Shown here: in pieces, positions 3,156 to 46,971 of the stretch
Position numbering within the stretch: the stretch's first letter is position 1
How the letters are laid out: every line of letters begins with the position of its first letter
Source: an uncultured Bacteroidales bacterium
Lineage (GTDB): Bacteria; Bacteroidota; Bacteroidia; Bacteroidales; UBA932
Reading direction: 5' to 3'
Assembly (NCBI GenBank): GCA_944326235.1
Contig: CALVDH010000009.1
Span: 4,795-68,794 of the forward strand
Length of the DNA: 64,000 bases
Notes under the pieces: model-generated
What the model was told of the DNA's origin: nothing
The model's input: only the letters and a program-made list of their open reading frames with translations
The model's database searches: none
Position numbers and translations under genes: made by a program

Positions 3156-4607
3156 TTAGTTTGTAATTGTCTGTTTATCTTCTATTTGCCAGTGGCCTCC
3201 CTTGTCCGGGCCTATGCGGCTGAGGGCTCCGGATGCCTTGAGTATTGTGAGGTCGCGCTGTACTGTCCTTATCGTAGTGGACAGCCGGGATGCTATCTGA
3301 GTCGCGGATATTGTCGGTTCGTGCCGGATAAGTTCAATAATCCTGAGTTGCCTGTCTGTAAGTTTATCTACGACATTATCTACGACATTATCTACGACAT
3401 TATCTACGACATTATCTACGACATCGCTTGTGAAATACAATGTGACGGTTACATAGTCCCGCTCACCCCGTATGACTGTCTTCTGCCCCGTAAGTTGCTG
3501 CCAGCTCAGCAGTTTTTCTATTCCGAAACCGATATTCTCAGCAAGTTTGGCCAGACGGAACAGTTTCGCGATGGTAGGATTGCGTGACGACGAGAACAGA
3601 GTGCCGTACATCCGTTCGGGAGGAATGGGAAACGCGCCGGCATTCATGAATTCAATCCTGTTCGTGAATACATGAACGCATGAGCGAAAAGGACTGAAAT
3701 GGTCCGTATGTATTAGCATATTGACCCAAGCCTCGCGCAGGACCTCGAACTGTCTCCCGTCATCTTCGGCAATACCGAGATTGTTTAGCTTAAACGGTCT
3801 GTCAACTAAAGTCAGCAAACGGCGGATAACGACTTGATAGGATTCCCATAGATTCTCCTGCTCCGGAGCACGGTACGAATAGCGTGTGGCTGCGTCAGAC
3901 ACGGACTTTCCAGGTATTTCTACATAGTCCATGCAGAATGTAGGGACGTAGCGCAGTACTTCCGGTCCTTTTCCGAACATCAGGAGACCTGCGTATGTGA
4001 GCTCTCCATGTTTATTGCTGATGGACAACTGTCTGCAGAAATCAGAGTCACTCAGATTCTCATATGCTGAAAGTTTGTTATATGTTTTCAGGTAATTTCT
4101 ATAACTATGCAGAGAGTTGATGTTGAGCATGTCTAAGTCCGTTTCAGGGACAGTCGTCTCTGAGCGGATTCCGAAAGACTGGTCATGGTACATCGCCATA
4201 ACCTCGCTTTCTGTCGCATGCTGGTCTCCGCTTCCCATCCGGATGAACGTGTTGCCGGGGTTTCCGAAATATACAGGCTTGACAGAAGATGAGGGGATGC
4301 GGAATGTCAGGATTTTCTTGCCGTCAATGTCATATTGTGCTGCGTCAGCCGACAGCCGCGTGTTGAATTTCTGAGAACGGAGTGTGCTGAAAAAATCCTG
4401 CTCCAGTTGTTCGGCATTTTCAACGCCACAGATTTCAAAAATTTTTCCTTTTTGCTTGATTCCGAGAATAATCCATCCGCCCGAGGTGTTCGAAAACGCA
4501 CTGACCGTCTCCCAGATATTTTTGGGCAGTCCGCTCTTTGCTTCTTTCACCTCGAAGTCATCCCATTCGATGTCCCTGAGCCTGTGGATTAATTCTTCCT
4601 TAGTCAT
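3156..4607 (-). CDS. COG2865-type regulator (AlbA_2/Schlafen-like N-domain, ATPase-like core, C-terminal winged helix)
   Basis: N-terminus DFEVKEAKSGLPKNIWETVSAFSNTSGGWIILGI and C-terminal HTH LTDRQLRIIELIRHEPTISATQIASRLSTTIRTVQRDL. Sampled line is about 40% GC, lower than the flanks. Confidence 0.75.
   Translation of the reverse strand: MTKEELIHRLRDIEWDDFEVKEAKSGLPKNIWETVSAFSNTSGGWIILGIKQKGKIFEICGVENAEQLEQDFFSTLRSQKFNTRLSADAAQYDIDGKKILTFRIPSSSVKPVYFGNPGNTFIRMGSGDQHATESEVMAMYHDQSFGIRSETTVPETDLDMLNINSLHSYRNYLKTYNKLSAYENLSDSDFCRQLSISNKHGELTYAGLLMFGKGPEVLRYVPTFCMDYVEIPGKSVSDAATRYSYRAPEQENLWESYQVVIRRLLTLVDRPFKLNNLGIAEDDGRQFEVLREAWVNMLIHTDHFSPFRSCVHVFTNRIEFMNAGAFPIPPERMYGTLFSSSRNPTIAKLFRLAKLAENIGFGIEKLLSWQQLTGQKTVIRGERDYVTVTLYFTSDVVDNVVDNVVDNVVDNVVDKLTDRQLRIIELIRHEPTISATQIASRLSTTIRTVQRDLTILKASGALSRIGPDKGGHWQIEDKQTITN
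3366..3425. repeat. 12-bp tandem repeat x5 (ATCTACGACATT) inside the CDS, encoding (VVDN)n on the minus strand
   Basis: Read directly. Four perfect copies plus a fifth with the last base changed. Anchored on the + shadow ORF residues IYDI x5 starting at 3366. Confidence 0.95.
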
Positions 4608-4614
4608 GCATTTA

Positions 4615-5841
4615 TTATTTAAGTGGTGCTATCATGAGTATGATATTGTCATTCTCGGTCAGGCCGTCTAGGATGGAGGATATCCTGGTGCGGGCGGCTT
4701 CGCTGAGACTGCCGTCGGTCAGGGCCTTGGCTCCGGCTTCCTGGAATGTCAGGGCGTCATAGCTGTTTGCGAGGTAACCGTATGAGAATCGGAAATTATT
4801 GTCGTTCCATGTCATGATGTCGTCCACGATGTTGCGCAGGGATACTTCCTCTGTTCGCCGGTCCATGACCACGTTGGGCAGATACTCATATTCGATGAAG
4901 AATTCCGCGCCTCTGCTGGTCACACCTGCCGACCTGGATATCCGGAGGACAGCGTAATCGGGGAGGAGAATGGGGCTGCGGAAGAGCGTGCCATCACTGA
5001 GATCCAGATGTCCAGGCTCGGTGATATCTTCGAACTGGACAGTAAGAATGGGCTTGATCTCCCGGTTCTCCAACACGTACAATGTGTCCTGCGCGGTGTT
5101 GTTGCTCTCGAAGCACAGGTCCATGGAGCCGGGGATGTTGTAACCTGTCTGTATGGTCAGGAAGACATTCTCTTCCATAGTGTAGGTCTTGGGGATTTCC
5201 CACAGGATGTTGCCCTCCATGTCCTGGCACCATGCGGCTGCGGGGCATTTGTCCTTAAAGGGCAGCGGTACGACTGTAATAGTGCTGGAAAGGCTGTCAA
5301 CTAAGAAGTTGAAGCCGTTGTTGGTATTGTTGTCGGCCTTGTAGGGCAGCTTGATGTCCGCAACGAGTCTGCCGGTGGAGATATCGTAACCGTAGATATT
5401 GTTCCTGTCTATGGTGCTGATCCATACCTTTCCGCCGGCTTCGTCCAGTTGTGCCGAGGATATGCTGTTGTACTCCCCAGGACCGCGTCCGATGCCGCCG
5501 ATGTCCCGTAGATATTTACCCGTGGCACGGTCGAAGAGTTTGAATGGAGTCTCGCTGTTCTTGCGGTAAACGCCTATGTAGTGGTCGGAGATGGTGAACT
5601 GTCCGCCGGTAACCAGAGCCTCAGGCCGGCTTTCCAGGGCTATGAACTCCGGCTCGCCGACCCACTCCGATATGAGGATGTCCTCTCCCTGTTTCAGGTC
5701 GGCATAGTTGACGGAGACGAGTCCTTCCGGGTTGCGGTGAGAGGTGCTTTTCGGACCGCATGACACGGCGCCCAGCAGGACAGCCGCTGACAGCAGGACG
5801 GCACTGGAGCAACGTGCTGCGTTAATCAGTAAAGTTTTCAT
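4615..5841 (-). CDS. 6-bladed beta-propeller family lipoprotein (paralog 1)
   Basis: Signal peptide with lipobox GAVSC. Shares motifs with ORF 56313..57533: GLVSVxY, QGED, GRGPGE, DEAGGKxW, CPAxAWCQDxEGNxLWEIPKTY, MDRRT, LMIAPL. The family name is recalled, not searched. Confidence 0.7.
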   Translation of the reverse strand: MKTLLINAARCSSAVLLSAAVLLGAVSCGPKSTSHRNPEGLVSVNYADLKQGEDILISEWVGEPEFIALESRPEALVTGGQFTISDHYIGVYRKNSETPFKLFDRATGKYLRDIGGIGRGPGEYNSISSAQLDEAGGKVWISTIDRNNIYGYDISTGRLVADIKLPYKADNNTNNGFNFLVDSLSSTITVVPLPFKDKCPAAAWCQDMEGNILWEIPKTYTMEENVFLTIQTGYNIPGSMDLCFESNNTAQDTLYVLENREIKPILTVQFEDITEPGHLDLSDGTLFRSPILLPDYAVLRISRSAGVTSRGAEFFIEYEYLPNVVMDRRTEEVSLRNIVDDIMTWNDNNFRFSYGYLANSYDALTFQEAGAKALTDGSLSEAARTRISSILDGLTENDNIILMIAPLK

Positions 5842-38619: not shown

Positions 38620-39225
38620 CTATTCCACCGAGGCCGGGTCGATCAGGTTGTTCAGGAGGGCGTAGACCGTCAGGCCGGCGACGGTCTTGATGCCGGTCTT
38701 GCGGGTGATGTTCTTGCGGTGGGTGATGACGGTGTAGATCGAGAGGTGGAAGCGGTCGGCTATCTCCTTGTTGAGCATGCCCTGGGCCACGCAGACCAGG
38801 ATCTCTTTCTCACGGGCGGAGAGTTCCTCCCGGTTCTCGGTACGGGGTCCGCCGGCTGACTGCGCCAGTGAGTTCCGGAGCTTGCTGATGACGGCCGCCG
38901 GGGTGTCGTAGATGCTGATGGTCTCGTCGTAGCTCTTTATGGTCTCGTCGTCCGTGACGGCTGTCGGGGCGGCTATCACCGCGGCGTCGGTCAGGTCGGA
39001 GATGCGGCTGCGGCCTGACGGACGGGATGCGAAGTCGAAGATTATGGGGTCTACGATTACGATGTCCGCCATGCTGTCCCGGACCGTTGCCTCGTTTTCG
39101 CGGGAGAGGTCAACCAGCACGGTCTCCACGGAGAAACCGCCGTGCTCCTCGAGTATGGAGGTGATGCCGCGGGCGATAATCCGCGACGGGGTTATGAGCA
39201 GTATTTTCTTCTTTGTCACTGACAT
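38620..39225 (-). CDS. LuxR/GerE-family regulator with receiver-like N-domain
   Basis: C-terminal HTH LSAREKEILVCVAQGMLNKEIADRFHLSIYTVITHRKNI. The N-terminal ~120 aa are CheY-like (ADIVIVDP). Confidence 0.85.
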   Translation of the reverse strand: MSVTKKKILLITPSRIIARGITSILEEHGGFSVETVLVDLSRENEATVRDSMADIVIVDPIIFDFASRPSGRSRISDLTDAAVIAAPTAVTDDETIKSYDETISIYDTPAAVISKLRNSLAQSAGGPRTENREELSAREKEILVCVAQGMLNKEIADRFHLSIYTVITHRKNITRKTGIKTVAGLTVYALLNNLIDPASVE

Positions 39226-39893
39226 TTTCCTTCCAGTCTGTTAACCATAGGGATGAGGATTGAGTTCTCGATCAGGGTATGCTTCTCCAGGTCGGCTTCT
39301 AAGGTGCAGAGCCTCGAGAGGGCCTTGATGGCGGTGACCGTGTCGCACACCGGGGGGAGGTACTTCATGACGATGTTCCTCAGGTCGTTGAGCTTCTCAT
39401 CTATGTTGTTGTGGTTCTCTTCAAATGTCTCCATGCTGTAGCCCTCGACCCTCTGTCCGCCGGCCACCGAGCGCACGTAGGGGAAGACGATGTCCTCCTC
39501 GTAGGCGAAATGGTTCTCCACTTCCTCCCGGTATCCGTCGAAGAAGCGCATGATCACGTCCCGCTGCATCGGGGTGCAGGGGCGGAGCAGGTCCTCGAAG
39601 ATGCGGCTCAGGTCCTGAATCTCATGGTCGAGGTAGTAGGAGTGAGAGGCGTGGAGGTATCTGACCAGGTCAATGGCCGAGGCGGCGGTCATCATCTCCG
39701 TCGTGGGGACGTAGCCCTCGGTGGCATACACGTTGGCTATGAGGAGGAAGGTGTCGCAGTTGACCCCGCTCTCGCGGCAAGTCTCCTCGACGGTTTTCTC
39801 CCCGAAGCCCAGCTTGATGCCCAGGCGGTAGATGACGGTCAGCAGTCGGTAGTCGGCGCCGATGAGGTCGGCCATTTTCATGTTCTTTCTCAT
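39216..39893 (-). CDS. hemerythrin-domain protein (RIC/ScdA-like)
   Basis: His/Glu ligand contexts HASHSYYLDHE, HFAYEEDIVFP and EENHNNIDEKL. Overlaps the LuxR gene start by 10 nt. Confidence 0.72.
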   Translation of the reverse strand: MRKNMKMADLIGADYRLLTVIYRLGIKLGFGEKTVEETCRESGVNCDTFLLIANVYATEGYVPTTEMMTAASAIDLVRYLHASHSYYLDHEIQDLSRIFEDLLRPCTPMQRDVIMRFFDGYREEVENHFAYEEDIVFPYVRSVAGGQRVEGYSMETFEENHNNIDEKLNDLRNIVMKYLPPVCDTVTAIKALSRLCTLEADLEKHTLIENSILIPMVNRLEGKCQ

Positions 39894-39943: not shown

Positions 39944-39980
39944 ACGGACCCCGGGGCCTGTCGCAGGTGCAGGGGTCCGT
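39944..39980 (-). terminator. hairpin terminator candidate insulating the hemerythrin promoter
   Basis: ACGGACCCC-N19-GGGGTCCGT. On the minus strand it is followed by TCTCTTTT. Confidence 0.45.
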
Positions 39981-40208: not shown

Positions 40209-40395
40209 ATTCTCACGTTGCTTTTTAGTTGTGACGTATATGTTTGATTATTAGCAATATCCAAAAGAGGCGATTTGTTAAGTGTCCTGTTTTTTGCCCA
40301 AAATCGCTTATTTTAGCGCCATTTAAAAAGTCTTTTATTTGCTAAATCTCGTAGTAAGAGCAAGTTGTGTTGCAACTAAAAAGCAACGTGAGAAT
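40209..40395. mobile_element. element A: 187-bp unit bounded by a perfect 23-bp inverted repeat (REPIN/MITE-like)
   Basis: ATTCTCACGTTGCTTTTTAGTTG at 40209..40231 and its exact reverse complement at 40373..40395 enclose 141 bp. Weaker palindromy extends about 40 bp further out on each side. Confidence 0.8.
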
Positions 40396-40557
40396 GGTTG
40401 GTGCAAGGGTGACAGAAGAGAATGGCCGGCTAATGGTTGCTGATGAGCCGGCGCAATGGTGGCTGAGATGTGTTGCTGAGCATGGACGCTGAGAGAGAAG
40501 CCTGATGGGCAGCGGGTTTTCCGGCCCCTCCTGACATGGAGCTGTACTGCCGTTGGG

Positions 40558-41508
40558 TCAGCGGATGACGTTGGGCATAGCATGCAGTCCGAGGCAGCGC
40601 AGTATCTGCTCGTCCCGTACATGGAATTTCCGCTGCACTGCATTTATTACTGACGGCAGTTGTCCGGAGTCAAGCATTGTGTAGGACGGTATGCCTATTT
40701 CCGGAAGCAGGACGCGGTCTATATATCCGCACACTTCCATGTCGGTGATACGCAGCCGCCAGGCTCCTCTTTCATAGGCTCTCATATCCTCGATTTCAGA
40801 CTCGAAGCCGGGCTCGGCTCCAGTCAGGGTGATAATCTCGCCCTGAGGGTACTTCTTTATCTGTTCACGTTCCCAATCCTCAGTGTTCCAGCGGTTCAGC
40901 TGGTGAATGAAACTTCTCTCCGTCCTATACAGATACTCAGTCCTTCCTGCATTGACGAAATATCTGAGCGGTATCCTGCCGTTTTCATCCAGGTCGTAGT
41001 AGACGTATCCGGTGCCTTTCTTTATTTTGAGCCTGCCGTGTCCTGAGCAGGAGTTGCTGATTCCAGGCAGCAGAATTCCATTGTCTCCGTCTCTGAAGTA
41101 TGAGGCGATAGAGGAGTGCGGGTATCTGAAGGCGGTTTCAGCAACTCCATGGTGGATAGGATTCCGTAGAATGTAGCTGAGAAGTACACGCTGGCGGAGG
41201 TATCCCGTTACAGGCCGGCAATATGTGTCGCTTTCGAACAGGATACCTCGGCGTCTGTATTTTGAGTTGAAATGCTTGGTGTAAGTGATCTTGAGAATCT
41301 TGATAAAGTCATCAGGACAGGTGCAGACCAGCGCGATGTGGCAGTGTGTGGACATTACCGCGTAGGCCAGCAATGTTATGCATGTCTTGAGAACGGTCAA
41401 CGCAATGCTGTTCTCCAATGCCGTGTAGTCATGATCGTCCCTGCATATCACATCCGGAGTACCGGAAGACAGGACCAAATGGTACATCTTTTCGCTCGCC
41501 TCTTTCAT
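40558..41508 (-). CDS. HUH / Y1 (IS200-IS605 or RAYT-like) transposase-family protein with long C-terminal extension
   Basis: HUH motif in MSTHCHIAL and catalytic-Tyr helix SYILRNPIHHGV (Y-x-x-x-N-P). 316 aa versus about 130-180 aa for typical Y1 enzymes. Confidence 0.75.
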   Translation of the reverse strand: MKEASEKMYHLVLSSGTPDVICRDDHDYTALENSIALTVLKTCITLLAYAVMSTHCHIALVCTCPDDFIKILKITYTKHFNSKYRRRGILFESDTYCRPVTGYLRQRVLLSYILRNPIHHGVAETAFRYPHSSIASYFRDGDNGILLPGISNSCSGHGRLKIKKGTGYVYYDLDENGRIPLRYFVNAGRTEYLYRTERSFIHQLNRWNTEDWEREQIKKYPQGEIITLTGAEPGFESEIEDMRAYERGAWRLRITDMEVCGYIDRVLLPEIGIPSYTMLDSGQLPSVINAVQRKFHVRDEQILRCLGLHAMPNVIR

Positions 41509-41572
41509 ACTGCTTCATTTTGATGTTTGTGCTGCGAATTACGGAAATAAATCCGAGATAATCAAGAGGCGG

Positions 41573-41588
41573 GGTAAATTAATTTACC
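41573..41588. promoter_or_regulatory. perfect 16-bp palindrome GGTAAATTAATTTACC upstream of the HUH gene
   Basis: Read directly. Lies 65-80 nt upstream of the ATG at 41508. Confidence 0.3.
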
Positions 41589-41670
41589 GCAGTGGCAAAA
41601 TAAGGTTGGGAATACTTGGAAGTAAGTGACGGGTGAGGAAAGGAAAGACGGAGAAAGGGAGGCTAAACTT

Positions 41671-41847
41671 CACGTTGCTTTTTAGTTGAACTGCAAATTG
41701 CTTAAAATTAAGATGTTGCAATAATGCAAAAATTCTACATGAGGTGAAAAGGGGCGGTTTAGGGCAAAAAACGGCTCACTTAAAATTCTTGCAAAATGGT
41801 AAATGCTTTGTAATCAAGAATGTATGATGTAACTAAAAAGCAACGTG
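41671..41847. mobile_element. element B: 177-bp unit bounded by the same 17-bp inverted repeat, inverted relative to element A
   Basis: CACGTTGCTTTTTAGTT at 41671..41687 and AACTAAAAAGCAACGTG at 41831..41847 enclose 143 bp. The interior aligns with element A only after reverse complementation (TTGATTA and TTAAGTG..GTTTTTTGCCC.AAA.CGC blocks). Confidence 0.8.
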
Positions 41848-41980
41848 GAATTGGGACATTCATCATTAAGGGCCTTGAAGGGCCTTGAGGGCCGTGCTGT
41901 AATGCTGCCATGCAGGAAAGCCATGCAGTGCCGGACGGTGACCCCGGTCGTGGTGTAGGTCGTGCGGTGCTGCTCCGGTG

Positions 41981-44461
41981 TCAGAGCAGCAGGAGGGCGG
42001 TGCGGTAGACGATGAAGGCGACAATCCAGGCGAGGACGATGGTGTAGACGGCGGAGATGACGGCCCATTTCCAGCCGCCGCTCTCGTTCTTGATGGCGAC
42101 GAAGGTGGCGATGCAGGGGAAATATAGCAGGACGAAGACCATGAAGGCGAGGGCCGCGGCCGGGGTGGTGGTCCGGGCCAGGGCGTTCTGCAGCATGGTG
42201 TCGCCGGAGACGGTCTCACTGACGGCTTCAGTGGCGCCGTCTGTGCCGGGATTGCCAGCGGTTGCAGGGAAGCGCTCCTGCTCACCGCTGTAGAGTACGC
42301 CCATGGTGCTGACCACAAGCTCCTTCGCGGCTACACCGGAGATGATGCCGACGCCCATCTTCCAGTCGAAGCCGAGGGGCTCGAGGACGGGCTCGATGGC
42401 CTTGCCGATCATGCCGATGTAGGAGTTCTCCTGCTGCTCGGCGGCGGTGGCCCAGCGGTCGTGATGGGGGAAGTATCCCAGGAACCAGATGATGATCGAG
42501 GCTACGAGGATGATGCCGGCCATCTTGTGCAGGTACTGCTTGCCTTTCTCCCAGGTGTGGCGGAAGACGGACTTGGAGGTCGGGACGCGGTAGGGCGGCA
42601 GCTCCATGACGAAAGGCAGGTTGTCGTCCTTGATGAAGCGGCTCATCACCTTGGCCGAGATGATGGCCATGACGATGCCGAGGGCATAGAGGCCGAGGAG
42701 CACGAGCGAGCCGTTGCGGGGGAAGAAGGCCCCAGCCACGAGGATGTAAACGGGCAGGCGGCCGGCGCAGGACATCATGGGGATGATGAGCATGGTGACC
42801 AGGCGGCTCTTATGGTTCTCGATAGTGCGGGTGGCCATGATGGCTGGCACGTTGCAGCCGAAGCCCATGATCATGGGGATGAACGACTTGCCGTGCAGGC
42901 CTATCTTGTGCATGAGCTTGTCCATGATGAAGGCGGCGCGGGCCATGTATCCGGAGTCCTCCAGCAGGGAGATGAACAGGTAGAGTATCAGGATGTTGGG
43001 CAGGAATACCAGCACGCTGCCCACTCCTCCGATGATACCGTCCACCACCAGGTCCTTCAGCATGCCCTCCGGCATGGTGGTGGCCACGAAGGCCCCGAAT
43101 TTCTCCACCAGCCACTCAATCCAGGTCATCGGGTATTCGCCCAGGCGGAAGGTGGCCTCGAAGATGATGTACAGCAGCAGGATGAATATCGGGAAGGCGG
43201 CCCAGCGGTTGGTGACCACGGCGTCTATCTTGTCGGTTATGGTATGCTTTTTCCGCACCTGTCCGGGAGTGTAGGTCTCCTTGAGGGCGCCCTGGACGAA
43301 GGCGTACTTGGCGTCTACGATGGCGGCCTCGGCATTGGTACCTCCGAGCAGTCCCTCTATGCGCCTGTTCTCCTCGAAGCGGGCGGCGATGATCTCGTCG
43401 TGGTTGGGCAGGGCCTCTACTATGGCCTCCACGTCGGAGTCGTTTTCGAGATACTTGATAGCGAGCCAGCGGGTGGAATAGTGGGTGCGTATGTCGTCGT
43501 TCTTCTGAATCAGCAGCTTGATGCGGTCGATGCTGTTCTCCAGCTCCTGGCCGTGGTTGATGTGGATGTGGCGGGACAGGGACGGCTCGTTGTGCTCGTA
43601 GATCTGGATGACGGTGTCGAACAGCCTGTCGATGCCCTGCCCGCTGCGGCTGACGGTGGGAACCACCGGCATACCGAGCAGATGTCCGAGGGTGACGGTG
43701 TCGAGCTTGTCCCCGCGGGCTTCCAGCTCGTCGTACATGTTCATGGCCATGACCACGCGGAGGTTCATGTCGATGATCTGGGCCGTCAGGTAGAGGTTGC
43801 GTTCGAGGTTGGAGGCGTCCACCACATTGATGACCACATCGGGGATATTGTCGATCAGGTTCTTGCGGACGTACAGCTCCTCAGGGCTGTAGGCCGAGAG
43901 GGAGTAGGTGCCGGGCAGGTCGACGAGGACAAAATGGTAGCCCTTGTATTCGAAGCGCCCTTCCTTGGCATCGACGGTCACTCCGCTGTAGTTGCCGACC
44001 CTCTCGTGGGAGCCGGAGGCAATGTTGAACAGGGAGGTCTTGCCGCAGTTGGGATTGCCCACGAGGGCGACCCGCACGGTGTGGCGGCGCTCCTCCGCGA
44101 GCTGCCGCATCCTCCGGTCGAGGTCCTCCGCATCGGAGCAGTCCGGTTCGCGGCAGCTCAGTCCGGGGGTGCCGGCAGAATTCCGGGATGCCTCCGGCTC
44201 TGCGGCATTGTCCTGAGATGTCTGGGCCTTGGCCTCGCTCTCGCTGATGACCTCTATCTCGCGGGCCTCGTCCCTGCGGAGCGATATCTTGTATCCTATG
44301 ATCTCGTATTCTATGGGGTCCCTGAGAGGGGCGTTGAGCACCACCCTGACCTCCTTTCCCTTGATGAATCCCATCTCGGTGATTCTCTTGCGGAAGGAGC
44401 CGTGTCCGCTCACTTTGACGATAATACCTCTTTCACCTGTTTTCAGATCCGAAAGTTTCAT
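41981..44461 (-). CDS. feoB: ferrous iron transporter, FeoA-FeoB fusion
   Basis: N-terminal FeoA SH3-like domain (LKTGERGIIVKV), G-domain GNPNCGKTSLFN and DLPGTYS, plus a polytopic C-terminal permease. Confidence 0.95.
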   Translation of the reverse strand: MKLSDLKTGERGIIVKVSGHGSFRKRITEMGFIKGKEVRVVLNAPLRDPIEYEIIGYKISLRRDEAREIEVISESEAKAQTSQDNAAEPEASRNSAGTPGLSCREPDCSDAEDLDRRMRQLAEERRHTVRVALVGNPNCGKTSLFNIASGSHERVGNYSGVTVDAKEGRFEYKGYHFVLVDLPGTYSLSAYSPEELYVRKNLIDNIPDVVINVVDASNLERNLYLTAQIIDMNLRVVMAMNMYDELEARGDKLDTVTLGHLLGMPVVPTVSRSGQGIDRLFDTVIQIYEHNEPSLSRHIHINHGQELENSIDRIKLLIQKNDDIRTHYSTRWLAIKYLENDSDVEAIVEALPNHDEIIAARFEENRRIEGLLGGTNAEAAIVDAKYAFVQGALKETYTPGQVRKKHTITDKIDAVVTNRWAAFPIFILLLYIIFEATFRLGEYPMTWIEWLVEKFGAFVATTMPEGMLKDLVVDGIIGGVGSVLVFLPNILILYLFISLLEDSGYMARAAFIMDKLMHKIGLHGKSFIPMIMGFGCNVPAIMATRTIENHKSRLVTMLIIPMMSCAGRLPVYILVAGAFFPRNGSLVLLGLYALGIVMAIISAKVMSRFIKDDNLPFVMELPPYRVPTSKSVFRHTWEKGKQYLHKMAGIILVASIIIWFLGYFPHHDRWATAAEQQENSYIGMIGKAIEPVLEPLGFDWKMGVGIISGVAAKELVVSTMGVLYSGEQERFPATAGNPGTDGATEAVSETVSGDTMLQNALARTTTPAAALAFMVFVLLYFPCIATFVAIKNESGGWKWAVISAVYTIVLAWIVAFIVYRTALLLL

Positions 44462-44631: not shown

Positions 44632-46971
44632 TTATCTGGTCCAGCCTGCCATCCAGTTGCTGTCGGCGGAGATGGCTCCGGCGAAGGAGGCAGACTCGAA
44701 GAATGAGTCGATGGTGCTGGCGTCAAGGTCTCCGGCAATGGTTCCGAAGAAGTTGTCGGTCAGGCTGAAGGTGTAGTCCACCTGGTTGTGGTTGGCCTCG
44801 GCGAGGAACATATCCTGGGTGTAGAGGATATTGTCGCTGTCGCTGGATACTCCGTTGGAAAGATATACGTGCTTGAGTACGGAGGTACCGTCGGCAAGAG
44901 CCTCCTCAGTGTGGGCGGTCTCTGTAGTCAGGGCGCGGGGCTTGCCGGTTACGATGGCGTTGTAGAGCTCGACCTCTGTACCGGCGCGGAGACGGATACC
45001 GCGTTTGTTCTCATCGGAGTTGTTGCCTACGAGGGTTACGTTTGCAAGAACGGGGTGGGAGATGGGAGCGGCTACCTCATCGTTGTCATTGTTGTCGCAC
45101 TCCATGAGGGCGTCGCACTCAGCGGAGATCTGGTAGGCTACCATGAACTGGCCCTTTCCGCTCCATCCTTCAGTCCAGTCGAAGGAGTCGTCGGTGTTGT
45201 CGGTGGATACGAGGTATCTAACGTTCACTGTGCCGCCGAACCACTCGAAGCCGTCGTCAGAACCGCCGTAGGCCTGGAGATGGTCCACTGTGGTGCCGTC
45301 ACCCACGCCGTAGAAGGTGAAGCCGTTGGCCTCTTTCTCCTCGGAGAAGGCGTATCCGCCGTACTCTACGCGGACGTACTGGAGAGTACCGGAGTTGTCG
45401 TGTGCGTCGTTTCCGCCGTAGGAGGCGTCACCGATCTCGGACTTGGCACCGGCACCGGCATTGATGGGGGCCTTGCCGCAGATGTGGATACCGCCCCATG
45501 CACCGGCTTCCTGCCTCTGGGCTGTCATCACGATGGGAGCGTCGGCTGTACCGCGGGCGTCGATCATGGCACCCTGCTCAATGAGGAGATAGTCTACGAT
45601 GTCGTCGTCCTGGGCTGTGATTACAGTACCGGGTTCAATGGTCAGAGTGGCTCCTTCCTTTACATGAAGGCCTCCGATAAGGATGTAATTGACACCTGCC
45701 CTGAGGGTCATGTCCTCGGTGATGTCGCCTTCGAGCTCTACAGTGGCGGTGCCTGTGCTGCCGCCGTCAGCGGAGAGGGCCCAGCCGCTGGTCCAGTCGT
45801 TGCCGGAGGGGAGGGCTCCAGCATAAGCTGCATTGTCGAAGAATGAGTCGATGCCGGAAGCGTCGAGACCGCCGTCAATTGTTCCCATAATGCTGTTGGT
45901 GAGCTCTGCTGCATAGCCCACAGCATTGTGGTTGTCATTTGCGAGGAAATCGTTCTGGTCGTAGAGGACAGAACCTTCCTCGTTGTCGCTCGAAACGCCG
46001 GAGGAAAGATAGACGTACTGGAGCTTGGAGGTGCCGTCGGCGAGGGCCTTCTCGGTGCCTTCGGTCTCAGTGGTCAGAGCGCGGCCCTTGCCGGTTACGA
46101 TGGCGTTGTATATCTCGGCCTGTGTGCCGGCGCGGAGACGTACACCGCGTCCGTCAGCTCCGTTGCCCACGAGGGTGACGTTGGAGAGAATGGGGTGGGA
46201 GATGGGCTCGGCATAGTTGTCATTGTCGTTGTTGTCAGCCTCGATGAGAGCGTCGCACTCGTCGGAGATCTGCTGGGCGATCATATACTGGCCCTTTCCG
46301 CACCAACCCTCTGTCCAGTCGAAGGAGTCGTCGGTGTTGTTGGTGGAGATCAGGTATTTCACGTTTACAGTACCGCCGAACCACTCGAATCCGTCGTCAG
46401 AGCCGTTGATGGCCTGGAGGTGGTCCACTGTGGTGCCGTCGCCCACACCGTAGAATGTGAAGCCGTTGGCCTCTTTCTCCTCGGAGAAGGCATATCCGCC
46501 GTACTCTACGCGGACGTACTGGAGGATACCGGAGTTGTCGTGAGGCTCGTTTCCGCCGTAGGAGGCGTCACCGATCTCGGACTTGGCGTCAGTGCCGGCG
46601 TTGATGGGGGCCTTGCCGCAGATGTGGAGGCCGCCCCATGCACCGGCTTCCTTACGGGTGGAGGTCATCACGATGGGAGCGCTTGCGGTACCGCGGGCGT
46701 CAATCATTGCGCCCTGCTCTATGAGGATGTAGTCTACCTGGTCGTCATCCTGGGCTACGATGGTCACACCGGGCTCGATGGTCAGAGTGGCGCCGGCCTT
46801 TACATGGAGGCCTCCGGTGAGGGTGTAGGTCTGACCCTCTTCGAGGATGCGGTTCTCGGTGATGTCGCCGATGAGGTCCACCTCAGGGTCAATGATCTGG
46901 GGATTTTTCTCTTCGCAGGATACAGCCACCATAGCTGCTCCGAGGGCGAGAATGAAAAGTTTTTTGTTCAT
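44632..46971 (-). CDS. lipoprotein made of two tandem ~380-aa modules (beta-helix-like), partner of the TonB-dependent receptor
   Basis: Lipobox VAVSC. Residues ~35-399 and ~415-779 are clearly homologous: GGLHVKxGATLTIEPG, WGGxHICGKAPIN, LQYVRVEYGGYAFSEEKEANGFTFYGVGDGTTVDHLQA, DGFEWFGGTVNV, DDSFDWTEGW. Confidence 0.7.
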   Translation of the reverse strand: MNKKLFILALGAAMVAVSCEEKNPQIIDPEVDLIGDITENRILEEGQTYTLTGGLHVKAGATLTIEPGVTIVAQDDDQVDYILIEQGAMIDARGTASAPIVMTSTRKEAGAWGGLHICGKAPINAGTDAKSEIGDASYGGNEPHDNSGILQYVRVEYGGYAFSEEKEANGFTFYGVGDGTTVDHLQAINGSDDGFEWFGGTVNVKYLISTNNTDDSFDWTEGWCGKGQYMIAQQISDECDALIEADNNDNDNYAEPISHPILSNVTLVGNGADGRGVRLRAGTQAEIYNAIVTGKGRALTTETEGTEKALADGTSKLQYVYLSSGVSSDNEEGSVLYDQNDFLANDNHNAVGYAAELTNSIMGTIDGGLDASGIDSFFDNAAYAGALPSGNDWTSGWALSADGGSTGTATVELEGDITEDMTLRAGVNYILIGGLHVKEGATLTIEPGTVITAQDDDIVDYLLIEQGAMIDARGTADAPIVMTAQRQEAGAWGGIHICGKAPINAGAGAKSEIGDASYGGNDAHDNSGTLQYVRVEYGGYAFSEEKEANGFTFYGVGDGTTVDHLQAYGGSDDGFEWFGGTVNVRYLVSTDNTDDSFDWTEGWSGKGQFMVAYQISAECDALMECDNNDNDEVAAPISHPVLANVTLVGNNSDENKRGIRLRAGTEVELYNAIVTGKPRALTTETAHTEEALADGTSVLKHVYLSNGVSSDSDNILYTQDMFLAEANHNQVDYTFSLTDNFFGTIAGDLDASTIDSFFESASFAGAISADSNWMAGWTR
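44635..46869. repeat. intragenic tandem duplication, period 1140 bp
   Basis: For example, 45311..45460 aligns with 46451..46600 with identical runs of 30-41 nt and roughly nine in ten positions matching by eye. Confidence 0.9.

Follow-up and report, generated by a model that had tools for sequence, protein, structure and literature searches.

A RAYT-like HUH transposase gene flanked by 177-bp inverted-repeat-bounded elements in uncultured Bacteroidales: a probable TIRtron-type gene-repeat system

Introduction

REP-associated tyrosine transposases (RAYTs) and the doublets of repetitive extragenic palindromic (REP) sequences known as REPINs represent the textbook example of transposase domestication, in which a population of cargo repeats is inherited vertically, and to our knowledge such RAYT-REPIN systems have been studied almost exclusively in Proteobacteria. 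The present analysis concerns a stretch of 64,000 nucleotides from an uncultured, Coprenecus-like gut Bacteroidales bacterium (contig CALVDH010000009.1, hereafter the window), in which a gene of the HUH/Y1 transposase type is bracketed by two elements, A and B, each with a 177-bp core bounded by the same inverted motif. With a probability of roughly 0.65, the locus represents a REPtron/TIRtron-type system, in which a RAYT-like Y1 HUH gene lies between two cognate repeats and more copies of the repeat are scattered intergenically.

The RAYT/REPtron systems, such as YafM of E. coli (4ER8) and the REPINs of Pseudomonas, resemble the window system in several respects, including a Y1 HUH fold for which 4ER8 is the best match; a gene that is single-copy and syntenic; a repeat of its own that flanks the gene and is dispersed extragenically, often as inverted doublets; and a repeat sequence that tracks the protein lineage. 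In contrast to these systems, the window protein reaches 26 bits on the REP_Tyr_transpos model against a cut-off of 80 and carries an extra conserved C-terminal domain of about 180 amino acids; its motif is not a 20–40-nt palindrome with a GTAG head, its unit is fixed at 177 bp with a 141-bp interior, its type of repeat is present in at least tens of copies rather than hundreds, and its host is an uncultured Rikenellaceae-like Bacteroidales. Because the thresholds of both the Y1_Tnp and the RAYT models are missed, the protein is regarded as RAYT-like in its probable working but is not classifiable as a member by the curated models.

In the TIRtrons described by Di Nocera et al. (2013), a RAYT-like gene is flanked by inverted repeats unrelated to the GTAG REPs, and further copies of these repeats, in many cases dimeric or clustered, make up moderately abundant families in the rest of the genome (PMC3733652). 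The window shares with these TIRYT/TIRtron systems a tyrosine-transposase gene flanked by non-GTAG inverted repeats that are also dispersed in related genomes. In the described TIRtrons, one long repeat lies at either side of the gene, GGGGWSAS being common to many of these repeats, and most of their proteins belong to subclass 2.1 with helix-turn-helix or DnaA_C-like tails (PMC6006769), whereas the window harbors a complete inverted-repeat-bounded 177-bp unit on each side and a C-terminal domain without a Pfam match. Since RAYT-like genes with atypical or terminal inverted repeats are known outside Proteobacteria, including in Bacteroidetes (PMC6006769, PMC3733652), a statement in an earlier note on this DNA, which described RAYTs flanked by inverted REP doublets as characterised mainly in Proteobacteria, needs correction. 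The TnpAY1 subclass 2.6 (Bertels group 5) of Bacteroidetes comprises proteins of about 179 amino acids with the signatures NH[LIV]H and YIH[QN]NP (Quentin et al. 2018, PMC6006769); it is likewise a group of phylum-restricted RAYT-like genes, but the window family, with 305–320 amino acids, S[TN]HxH and YILRNPxHHG, is set apart by the description of subclass 2.6.

Insertion sequences (ISs) of the IS200/IS605 family and their palindrome-associated transposable element (PATE) derivatives, with IS608 and ISDra2 as examples, share the catalytic fold and the lack of target duplication, and the loss of a motif-to-motif segment described below resembles precise excision of the TnpA type. Unlike these ISs, the window gene is not multicopy, has no tnpB and occupies a locus that is syntenic across species, and composite units of 177 bp take the place of small subterminal hairpins at the ends. 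The invertible promoters (fin regions) of Bacteroides measure 170–200 bp and have inverted repeats of similar length to those of the window. Both are intergenic 170–200-bp segments with inverted repeats of about 20 bp, and one between-lineage inversion was observed in the window system; in the latter, however, neither a linked serine or tyrosine recombinase nor an evident promoter inside the element is present, and nearly all copies have a fixed orientation.

Organization of the HUH Locus

The features of the locus and its neighbours are as follows.

40558..41508, minus strand: HUH/Y1 gene, 316 amino acids, bracketed by elements A and B
40209..40395, no strand assigned: element A, 187-bp unit with the perfect 23-bp inverted repeat ATTCTCACGTTGCTTTTTAGTTG at its ends
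40214-40390: core of element A, CACG...CGTG, 177 bp
40209..40231, plus strand: outer (left) arm of element A, including the 19-mer at 40213-40231
40373..40395, minus strand: inner (right) arm of element A, the left arm reverse-complemented
40245..40251, plus strand: conserved internal block TGATTAT of element A, at offset 31 from the CACG end
40278..40298, plus strand: central blocks of element A, TTAAGTG at 40278-40284 and TTTTTGCC at 40291-40298
41670..41848, no strand assigned: element B, core 41671-41847, 177 bp, with the same 17-mer at both ends
41670..41688, plus strand: HUH-proximal arm of element B, a 19-bp direct repeat with 40213-40231
41981-44461, minus strand: fused FeoA-FeoB gene, a neighbour
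39216-39893 and 38620-39225, minus strand: hemerythrin-GerE pair, neighbours

Element A is located downstream of the HUH gene, on the side of the hemerythrin operon, and element B is located upstream, adjoining the 3' end of feoB. The 17-mer CACGTTGCTTTTTAGTT occupies all four element ends, at 40214(+), 40374(-), 41671(+) and 41831(-), giving the motif order + - (gene) + -, and no further match was found in the window with up to 3 mismatches allowed; 0.07 matches are expected there by chance, and four copies were reached in none of 100 shuffles. The repeat search of the window returned arms of 23 nt for element A, 100% complementary with 141 nt between them, and element B encloses 143 bp between its two 17-mers, so the dimensions first noted for both elements are reproduced. 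The 19-mer TCACGTTGCTTTTTAGTTG is present at 40213-40231 and 41670-41688, and this direct repeat pair marks the end points of a 1457-bp segment that is absent from the relative L153.

The interiors of A and B are alignable only when one of them is reverse-complemented, with 54–67% identity, and the blocks TGATTA, TTAAGTG and TTTTTGCC are common to both at equal offsets; TTAAGTG represents a degenerate inner copy of the motif, and TTTTTGCC belongs to a central 'TTTTTGCC / GGCAAAAA' box. The description of A and B as mirror images thus holds for the alignment of the interiors, but the arrangement is not fixed, as A is flipped in a close relative and the two elements are in direct orientation in distant ones. 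The GC content is about 40% in the elements, 47–56% in the open reading frame (ORF) and 58–65% in the neighbouring genes, in agreement with the initial view of a cassette of lower GC between feoAB and the hemerythrin operon.

Features of the HUH/Y1 Protein

The ORF product carries MSTHCHIAL and SYILRNPIHHGV, and its two parts are delimited as follows.

About residues 1-135, N-terminal: catalytic core, with HUH = H55/H57 and Tyr = Y112
About residues 157-310: conserved C-terminal domain, about 180 residues following the catalytic core

In an alignment of 17 homologues, H55, H57, Y112, N116 and P117 are invariant, as is Y112-I-L-R-N-P-x-H-H-G, which argues for retained nuclease chemistry, and the C-terminal half likewise exhibits many invariant residues, including RWNTEDWE.EQ, MRAYE and EQ..RC; the HUH and Y-x-x-x-N-P motifs and the additional C-terminal residues read from the single sequence are therefore characters of the family. 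Only two family matches were obtained in Pfam and NCBIfam, namely Y1_Tnp (PF01797), with E = 0.0016 and 19 bits against a gathering score of 23, and REP_Tyr_transpos (NF047646), with 26.2 bits and an alignment that spans the whole model. The AlphaFold (AF2) model of the protein has a predicted local distance difference test (pLDDT) of 83.6 and a predicted template-modelling score (pTM) of 0.85, and its best fold match in the PDB is 4ER8, the complex of the E. coli RAYT with a REP hairpin, with ISDra2 and IS608 TnpA next in rank. The Y1/RAYT affinity suggested from the motifs is accordingly seen as weak profile hits below cut-off together with a clear fold match. The C-terminal ~160 residues alone gave a poor model (pLDDT 67), with a best PDB fold match at E = 1.4 and no Pfam match.

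A word-indexed search of 5.8 billion proteins returned 22 relatives, and about 150 were obtained at E < 1e-30 when 1.84 billion cluster representatives (50% identity clusters) were searched exhaustively with a profile, most of them 300–320 amino acids long and matched over their full length; where they are named, they are called 'hypothetical protein' or 'transposase [Bacteroidales bacterium]'. Judged from alignment and model, the ORF product appears to be a genuine but distant Y1 HUH protein.

Genomic Distribution of the 177-bp Repeat

The 17-mer was searched in one genome for each of 185,579 species (596 Gb), with the window's own genome represented by the 64 kb. At least 119 stretches with the 17-mer were obtained, at least 69 of them from at least 17 closely related metagenome-assembled genomes (MAGs), and about 50 of the listed stretches are single matches in unrelated taxa, of the order expected by chance for a 17-mer. 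The repeat-bearing MAGs include Candidatus Coprenecus (Rikenellaceae incertae sedis), 'Alistipes sp.' CAG:831, UMGS1292, UMGS654, several BRZ_ bins and two complete MAGs, and the richest genome contains at least 10 loci.

Among the matches listed, with mismatches allowed, 58 +/- pairs were observed, almost always with starts 159–160 nt apart, so that the motif is dispersed in related genomes and nearly always forms inverted pairs, the arrangement that the earlier note had asked about. The length from CACG to CGTG is highly uniform in these pairs, being 177 bp in 49, 176 bp in 7 and shorter in 2. One arm of each pair is conserved by construction, because the search was anchored on the exact 17-mer, and the arm outside the anchor displays no mismatch in 29 pairs, one in 15, two in 13 and three in 1. 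Differential conservation was observed within the repeat, with ends 96% identical versus about 44% for the interiors between unrelated subfamilies. All copies among the matches listed lie between genes, whether these are arranged in tandem, convergently or divergently, and the genes adjoining them are mutually unrelated. None of these 58 copies has a flanking direct repeat or target-site duplication; their flanks weakly prolong the inverted repeat, with ..ATCYT outside CACG and ARGAT.. outside CGTG. Copies at orthologous positions in different species are 95–99% identical, and the orthologues of element A are 96–99% identical in six relatives.

The 17-mer is not self-complementary, and in single-stranded DNA folds of the elements only the terminal 23–28 bp pair strongly, with no consistent interior structure; a long palindrome or REPIN-like hairpin for the whole element was thereby ruled out. 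Of the domesticated HUH enzyme with a family of long palindromic cargo elements that the earlier note had envisaged, the dispersed repeat family is retained and the long palindrome is not. No convincing promoter was found inside the element in a sigma-70 scan, the model of which is uninformative for Bacteroidetes; the only Rfam matches in the window and in 12 loci with elements were tRNAs and a SAM-II riboswitch elsewhere; and no 10.5-bp AA/TT periodicity, checked as a sign of bent-DNA phasing, was present in the interiors.

The 27 copies of the largest subfamily all have one orientation relative to their flanks, and this subfamily is embedded in a composite repeat of ~0.7 kb (L105:580-1330; L068:7110-7870; L062:3730-4500; L131:600-1350). 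A promoter-like box, the reverse complement of which is TATCTTTGCGGATAATCAT and fits the Bacteroidetes -7 consensus TAnnTTTG, lies 13 nt outside one inverted repeat and points toward the neighbouring gene; its promoter role is uncertain because it resembles an internal block of the element, and the box was not found in the 64-kb window. The opposite side is occupied by a conserved, G-rich and non-coding flank of ~450 nt, at the end of which the box recurs in inverted form; no conserved ORF and no Rfam match were found in this flank.

Repeat Types among HUH Lineages

In tblastn searches with the HUH protein, a single HUH locus was detected in each genome (L032, L043, L061, L072, L116 and L114/L071), a count that covers the fetched loci of each genome, themselves drawn from the at least 119 listed stretches. 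These loci are collinear with the window at 85–97% identity, and the exact protein is on record in the feoB-HUH-hemerythrin context only, so the HUH gene appears, from these comparisons, to be single-copy and vertically inherited. With one syntenic locus per genome and no duplications seen, the cassette does not behave as an ordinary multicopy IS with target duplications, one of the outcomes named beforehand as refuting a gene-repeat system. The distant homologues occur in unrelated genomic contexts and are always bracketed by repeats.

Repeats are present on both sides of the gene in all eight HUH lineages compared (the window and seven further ones), and inverted-repeat-bounded units of ~180 bp, each built on a lineage-specific motif, are present in the window and the five closest of the seven; P0025 and P0163 are the two most distant lineages, and the form of the repeat differs there. 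The lineages, with identity to the window protein where given, locus and repeat, are as follows.

Window lineage, window: CACGTTGCTTTTTAGTT, two 177-bp units
P0004 (79%), L143: the window's motif
P0006 (56%), L146: GTCACTATACATTTTAGT, units of 187 and 185 bp
P0007 (49%), L014: CACCTAACATT as + - + - within 179 bp
P0015 (43%), L006: CATCCTAACATT as + - + -
P0017 (42%), L017: GGAGTCCAGCA as + - + - within 188 bp
P0025, L148: two compact hairpins CACTTCGTGGC-16 nt-GCCACGATGTG around a GGCAAAAA box, with more copies downstream and 2 kb away
P0163, L150: 400-bp repeats, 99% identical, on both sides

Across these sequences, the repeat motif co-varies with the lineage of the HUH protein. Three landmarks recur among the lineages, which are TGATTAT / AATCA at ~31 nt from an end, an inner motif pair at offsets of about 58–72 and 105–120, and the central TTTTTGCC box. 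The TGATTAT block is found at an equal offset in L014 and L017 (TGATTATCA); in L148, where the compact hairpins have an 11-bp stem, AATCA comes after the first hairpin arm; and a TTTTTGCC-type box is located between the inner motif copies in L014, L017, L006 and L148. The window elements have the landmarks at the same offsets, with inner motif copies degenerated to ..AAGTG / CAYTT... As the landmarks keep their offsets across lineages, the 177-bp unit is read as a doublet of hairpin-forming motif pairs. The ancestral unit accordingly probably comprised four short lineage-specific motif copies in the order + - + -, giving two hairpin-forming pairs around the TTTTTGCC box, a design still recognisable in relatives, and the window's lineage has kept the outer copies (CACGTTGCTTTTTAGTTG) almost invariant and let the inner ones degenerate. 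An apparent inversion of the central box in L017 (TTTT-GCCCC-AAAA versus TTTT-GGGGC-AAAA) was not counted as evidence, because the box is nearly palindromic.

Half-elements were also observed, in which CACGTTGCTTTTTAGTT is paired 56 nt away with CACTATACATTTTAG, a motif of the P0006 type belonging to another HUH lineage (L035:6139-6211; L029:2953-3023; L107:835-907; L038:2699-2771; L117:7212-7284). Two motif types thus coexist in the same genomes, as joint diversification of motif variants and enzymes would predict. In L148, three REP-like hairpin-plus-box units with a 105-nt period (4048-4297) are in frame in the 5' part of the gene (Exo_endo_phos_3) downstream of the HUH homologue, where they read as a repeated linker after the signal peptide. 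The flanks of P0163 in L150 are 400-bp direct repeats at 1931-2323 and 4326-4719, and a 44-nt tandem array of seven copies (L150:3969-4319) lies beside the gene.

Rearrangements at the Motif

The locus L032 (Ca. C. merdigallinarum) is collinear with the window, except that element A is inverted exactly between its repeats, with an interior 96% identical to that of the window. The metagenome contig L155 is also inverted and is 100% identical to L032, so it does not represent an independent case. Of 48 flank-matched pairs, five are inverted, all involving L032, and the others are orientation-conserved, which indicates a single event and no frequent switch; inversion as a polymorphism was considered and set aside, the second inverted contig of the metagenome scan being of the same lineage as L032. 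In more distant relatives, the two flanking elements are in direct orientation.

Two relatives lack the cassette with a junction at the motif, in answer to the question of its presence or absence between related strains. In L153 (604 kb, 93–96% identical), the left flank and arm of A are joined directly to the interior of B, the 1457 bp between the direct 19-mers, HUH gene included, are missing, and the junction lies inside the 19-mer. In L058, the representative MAG of Ca. C. stercorigallinarum, a single B-like element is located between feoB and the hemerythrin gene; on contigs that encode P0004, by contrast, the cassette is complete and its upstream element matches this solo copy at 92% identity. 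The solo copy consists of an A-type outer-arm variant (CACGATGCC...) and a B-type interior, and because it joins the two, the crossover was placed by eye in the TTTTAGTTG half of the motif. Cleavage and rejoining of the same strand at two motif copies would produce deletion and inversion alleles of this kind.

Some short metagenome contigs of the locus end at or inside element A (L002 ends at window position 40213), and L003 and L004 read through it; the repeats may contribute to some of the assembly breaks in these MAGs. In L005:2362-2394, the contig runs 33 nt into a diverged element end (..GTTGATAACTTAAAAGAAAC..), which could be either an assembly chimera or a strain variant. The only empty-site candidate, L051 compared with window 63.0-64.0 kb, proved to be a larger indel with no clean junction.

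Proposed System and Alternative Explanations

The REPtron/TIRtron-type reading draws on the fold and catalytic motifs of the protein, on the dispersal, fixed length and conserved ends of the repeat, on the co-variation of motif and protein lineage and on the rearrangements that end in the motif; from these, we infer that the enzyme acts on the motif and mobilises the elements. The mechanism proposed here follows the reactions established for TnpA(IS608/ISDra2) and TnpA(REP). The enzyme, probably dimeric, would recognise the motif or hairpin on single-stranded DNA, for example at replication forks, and cleave beside the motif by Tyr112 with a metal held by the HUH histidines, passing through a 5'-phosphotyrosine intermediate before the strands are rejoined. 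Two direct-orientation motif copies on one strand would lead to precise excision or integration of the intervening segment, which would account for the loss or gain of the gene-bearing 1457-bp segment; complete doublets, the 177-bp units, could give rise to copies at other intergenic positions; between inverted motif copies, an inversion would occasionally result; and the C-terminal domain probably adds contacts to DNA or host factors.

Several observations weigh against this reading. The protein remains below the cut-offs of both curated families, the profile of its family found no match among PDB sequences at E <= 0.01, and the Trp of the RAYT 'WQ/WE' motif is seemingly not conserved when the alignment is read against the motif table of PMC6006769. 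Part of the end conservation follows from the anchored search described above, and copy number is modest compared with classical REPs (tens, as a lower bound). Within one genome, paralogues are at most 96% identical with no identical 'master' copies, which makes recent activity doubtful, and internal deletions erode some orthologous copies, for example L026, L075 and L028. No filled/empty-site pair was found for any dispersed copy, and mobility is therefore read from their distribution. C. stercorigallinarum has no HUH gene at the syntenic site, yet harbors at least 7 element loci with good ends. Finally, the rearrangements are no proof of enzyme action, because recombination, slippage or template switching between repeats of 19–23 bp gives the same products. 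Confidence is high in a gene-repeat system of the RAYT/TIRtron type; it is moderate in a continuing mobilisation of the repeats by the enzyme, owing to the lack of identical copies and of filled/empty pairs, the decaying copies and the good-ended elements without a syntenic gene in one species.

Among the alternatives, an autonomous IS200/IS605-like IS appears unlikely. Its mobile unit would be the 1457-bp motif-to-motif segment with the HUH gene, and the 177-bp units would be derivatives similar to PATEs or miniature inverted-repeat transposable elements (MITEs), or preferred targets of a gene-bearing circle. Exactly this segment is absent in two relatives with the junction in the motif, the distant homologues sit in unrelated contexts that are always repeat-bracketed, the GC content of the ORF is below that of its neighbours and the IS608 and ISDra2 transposases are among the fold matches; such an IS is nevertheless difficult to reconcile with a gene seen once per genome and an exact protein found in a single context, with a locus syntenic across genomes 85–97% identical, with flanking elements that are old and mutually different (54–67% identity), with the failure to find identical copies anywhere and with 177-bp inverted-repeat-bounded units in place of the small subterminal hairpins of IS200/IS605 ends. 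That ordinary MITEs moved by an unrelated DDE transposase came to surround the HUH gene by coincidence is hardly credible: terminal inverted repeats and an intergenic location would suit them, but the closest structural relative of the protein binds such repeats, and the explanation is regarded as excluded by the co-varying association over eight lineages (repeats on both gene sides in 8/8, ~180-bp units on the lineage motif in the six closest) together with the absence of target-site duplications at the 58 copies among the matches listed.

An unlikely explanation, not exclusive of the REPtron/TIRtron-type reading, is that the elements are functional modules maintained by the host under selection, as protein-binding, regulatory or nucleoid sites or RNAs, and that the domesticated HUH protein binds or processes them without spreading them. 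The genes beside the elements are unrelated to each other, several orthologous copies decay by internal deletion, no Rfam family was matched and the catalytic HUH and Tyr residues are invariant, all of which count against such modules; in their favour are the strict length (177 bp in 49/58, 176 bp in 7/58) with near-invariant ends despite ~44% interior identity, the 95–99% conservation of orthologous copies across species, the internal blocks at fixed offsets across lineages, the promoter-like TAnnTTTG box that faces the downstream gene beside one subfamily and the large and conserved C-terminal domain. It is an unlikely and more speculative extension that the enzyme rearranges host-maintained 177-bp modules site-specifically, inserting and excising its own gene and flipping or exchanging modules in front of surface-protein and other genes, with the C-terminal domain serving for targeting; if true, the repeat family would serve gut Bacteroidales as a system of regulation or variation driven genome-wide by the HUH enzyme. 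Phase-variable invertible segments, flipped by the HUH protein or by an unlinked recombinase, are very unlikely. The size and the inverted-repeat length are like those of Bacteroides invertible promoters, one lineage has element A flipped precisely from repeat to repeat and some short metagenome contigs end at or inside this element, but a single inversion event accounts for all inverted pairs (5/48, all with L032, and L155 of the same lineage), all 27 copies of the largest subfamily lie the same way round with respect to their flanks, a clear internal promoter is lacking and the 10 kb to each side are free of tyrosine and serine recombinase genes; moreover, flipping would change little, because the element is quasi-symmetric.

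Significance of the HUH Family

The REPtron/TIRtron-type reading extends the logic of domesticated transposases of the RAYT/REP type to a new protein subfamily and an unusually long new repeat. Its principle is unsurprising to RAYT specialists; what is new is the unannotated Bacteroidales family, the fixed-length repeat and the testable natural alleles. A family of about 150 clusters, nearly all named 'hypothetical protein', would thus exhibit RAYT logic in uncultured gut Bacteroidales, combined with a new C-terminal domain. The history of the repeat can be traced from lineage to lineage, beginning with compact hairpin doublets and leading to the 177-bp unit whose ends are invariant. For experiments, the 17–19-mer offers a candidate substrate (the ATTCTCACGTTGCTTTTTAGTTGTGAC stretch and the inner copies), natural alleles exist with the cassette present, absent or inverted, and the repeats could be used as strain markers.

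Additional Observations at the Locus

G-rich tandem stretches beside the elements differ from relative to relative. In the window, a short G-rich tandem repeat, AAGGGCCTTG x 2.7, abuts element B (41868-41893), and 'aatgg..gctga'-like quasi-tandem repeats abut element A (40396-40500); in L006:4529-4673, the G-rich GGGCGAACCT x ~10 abuts the element. Window 39944-39980, in the spacer from element A to the start codon of the hemerythrin gene, contains a 17-nt inverted repeat (complementarity 82%, loop 3 nt), after which TTCTCTTTT follows on the minus strand; the inverted repeat could be a terminator of the HUH/element-A transcript or a leader structure of the hemerythrin operon. At window 44632-46971, the gene of a 779-aa Beta_helix_4 protein is internally duplicated, its segments at ~44.9-45.7 kb and ~45.8-46.8 kb cross-matching at ~81% in the comparisons with relatives.

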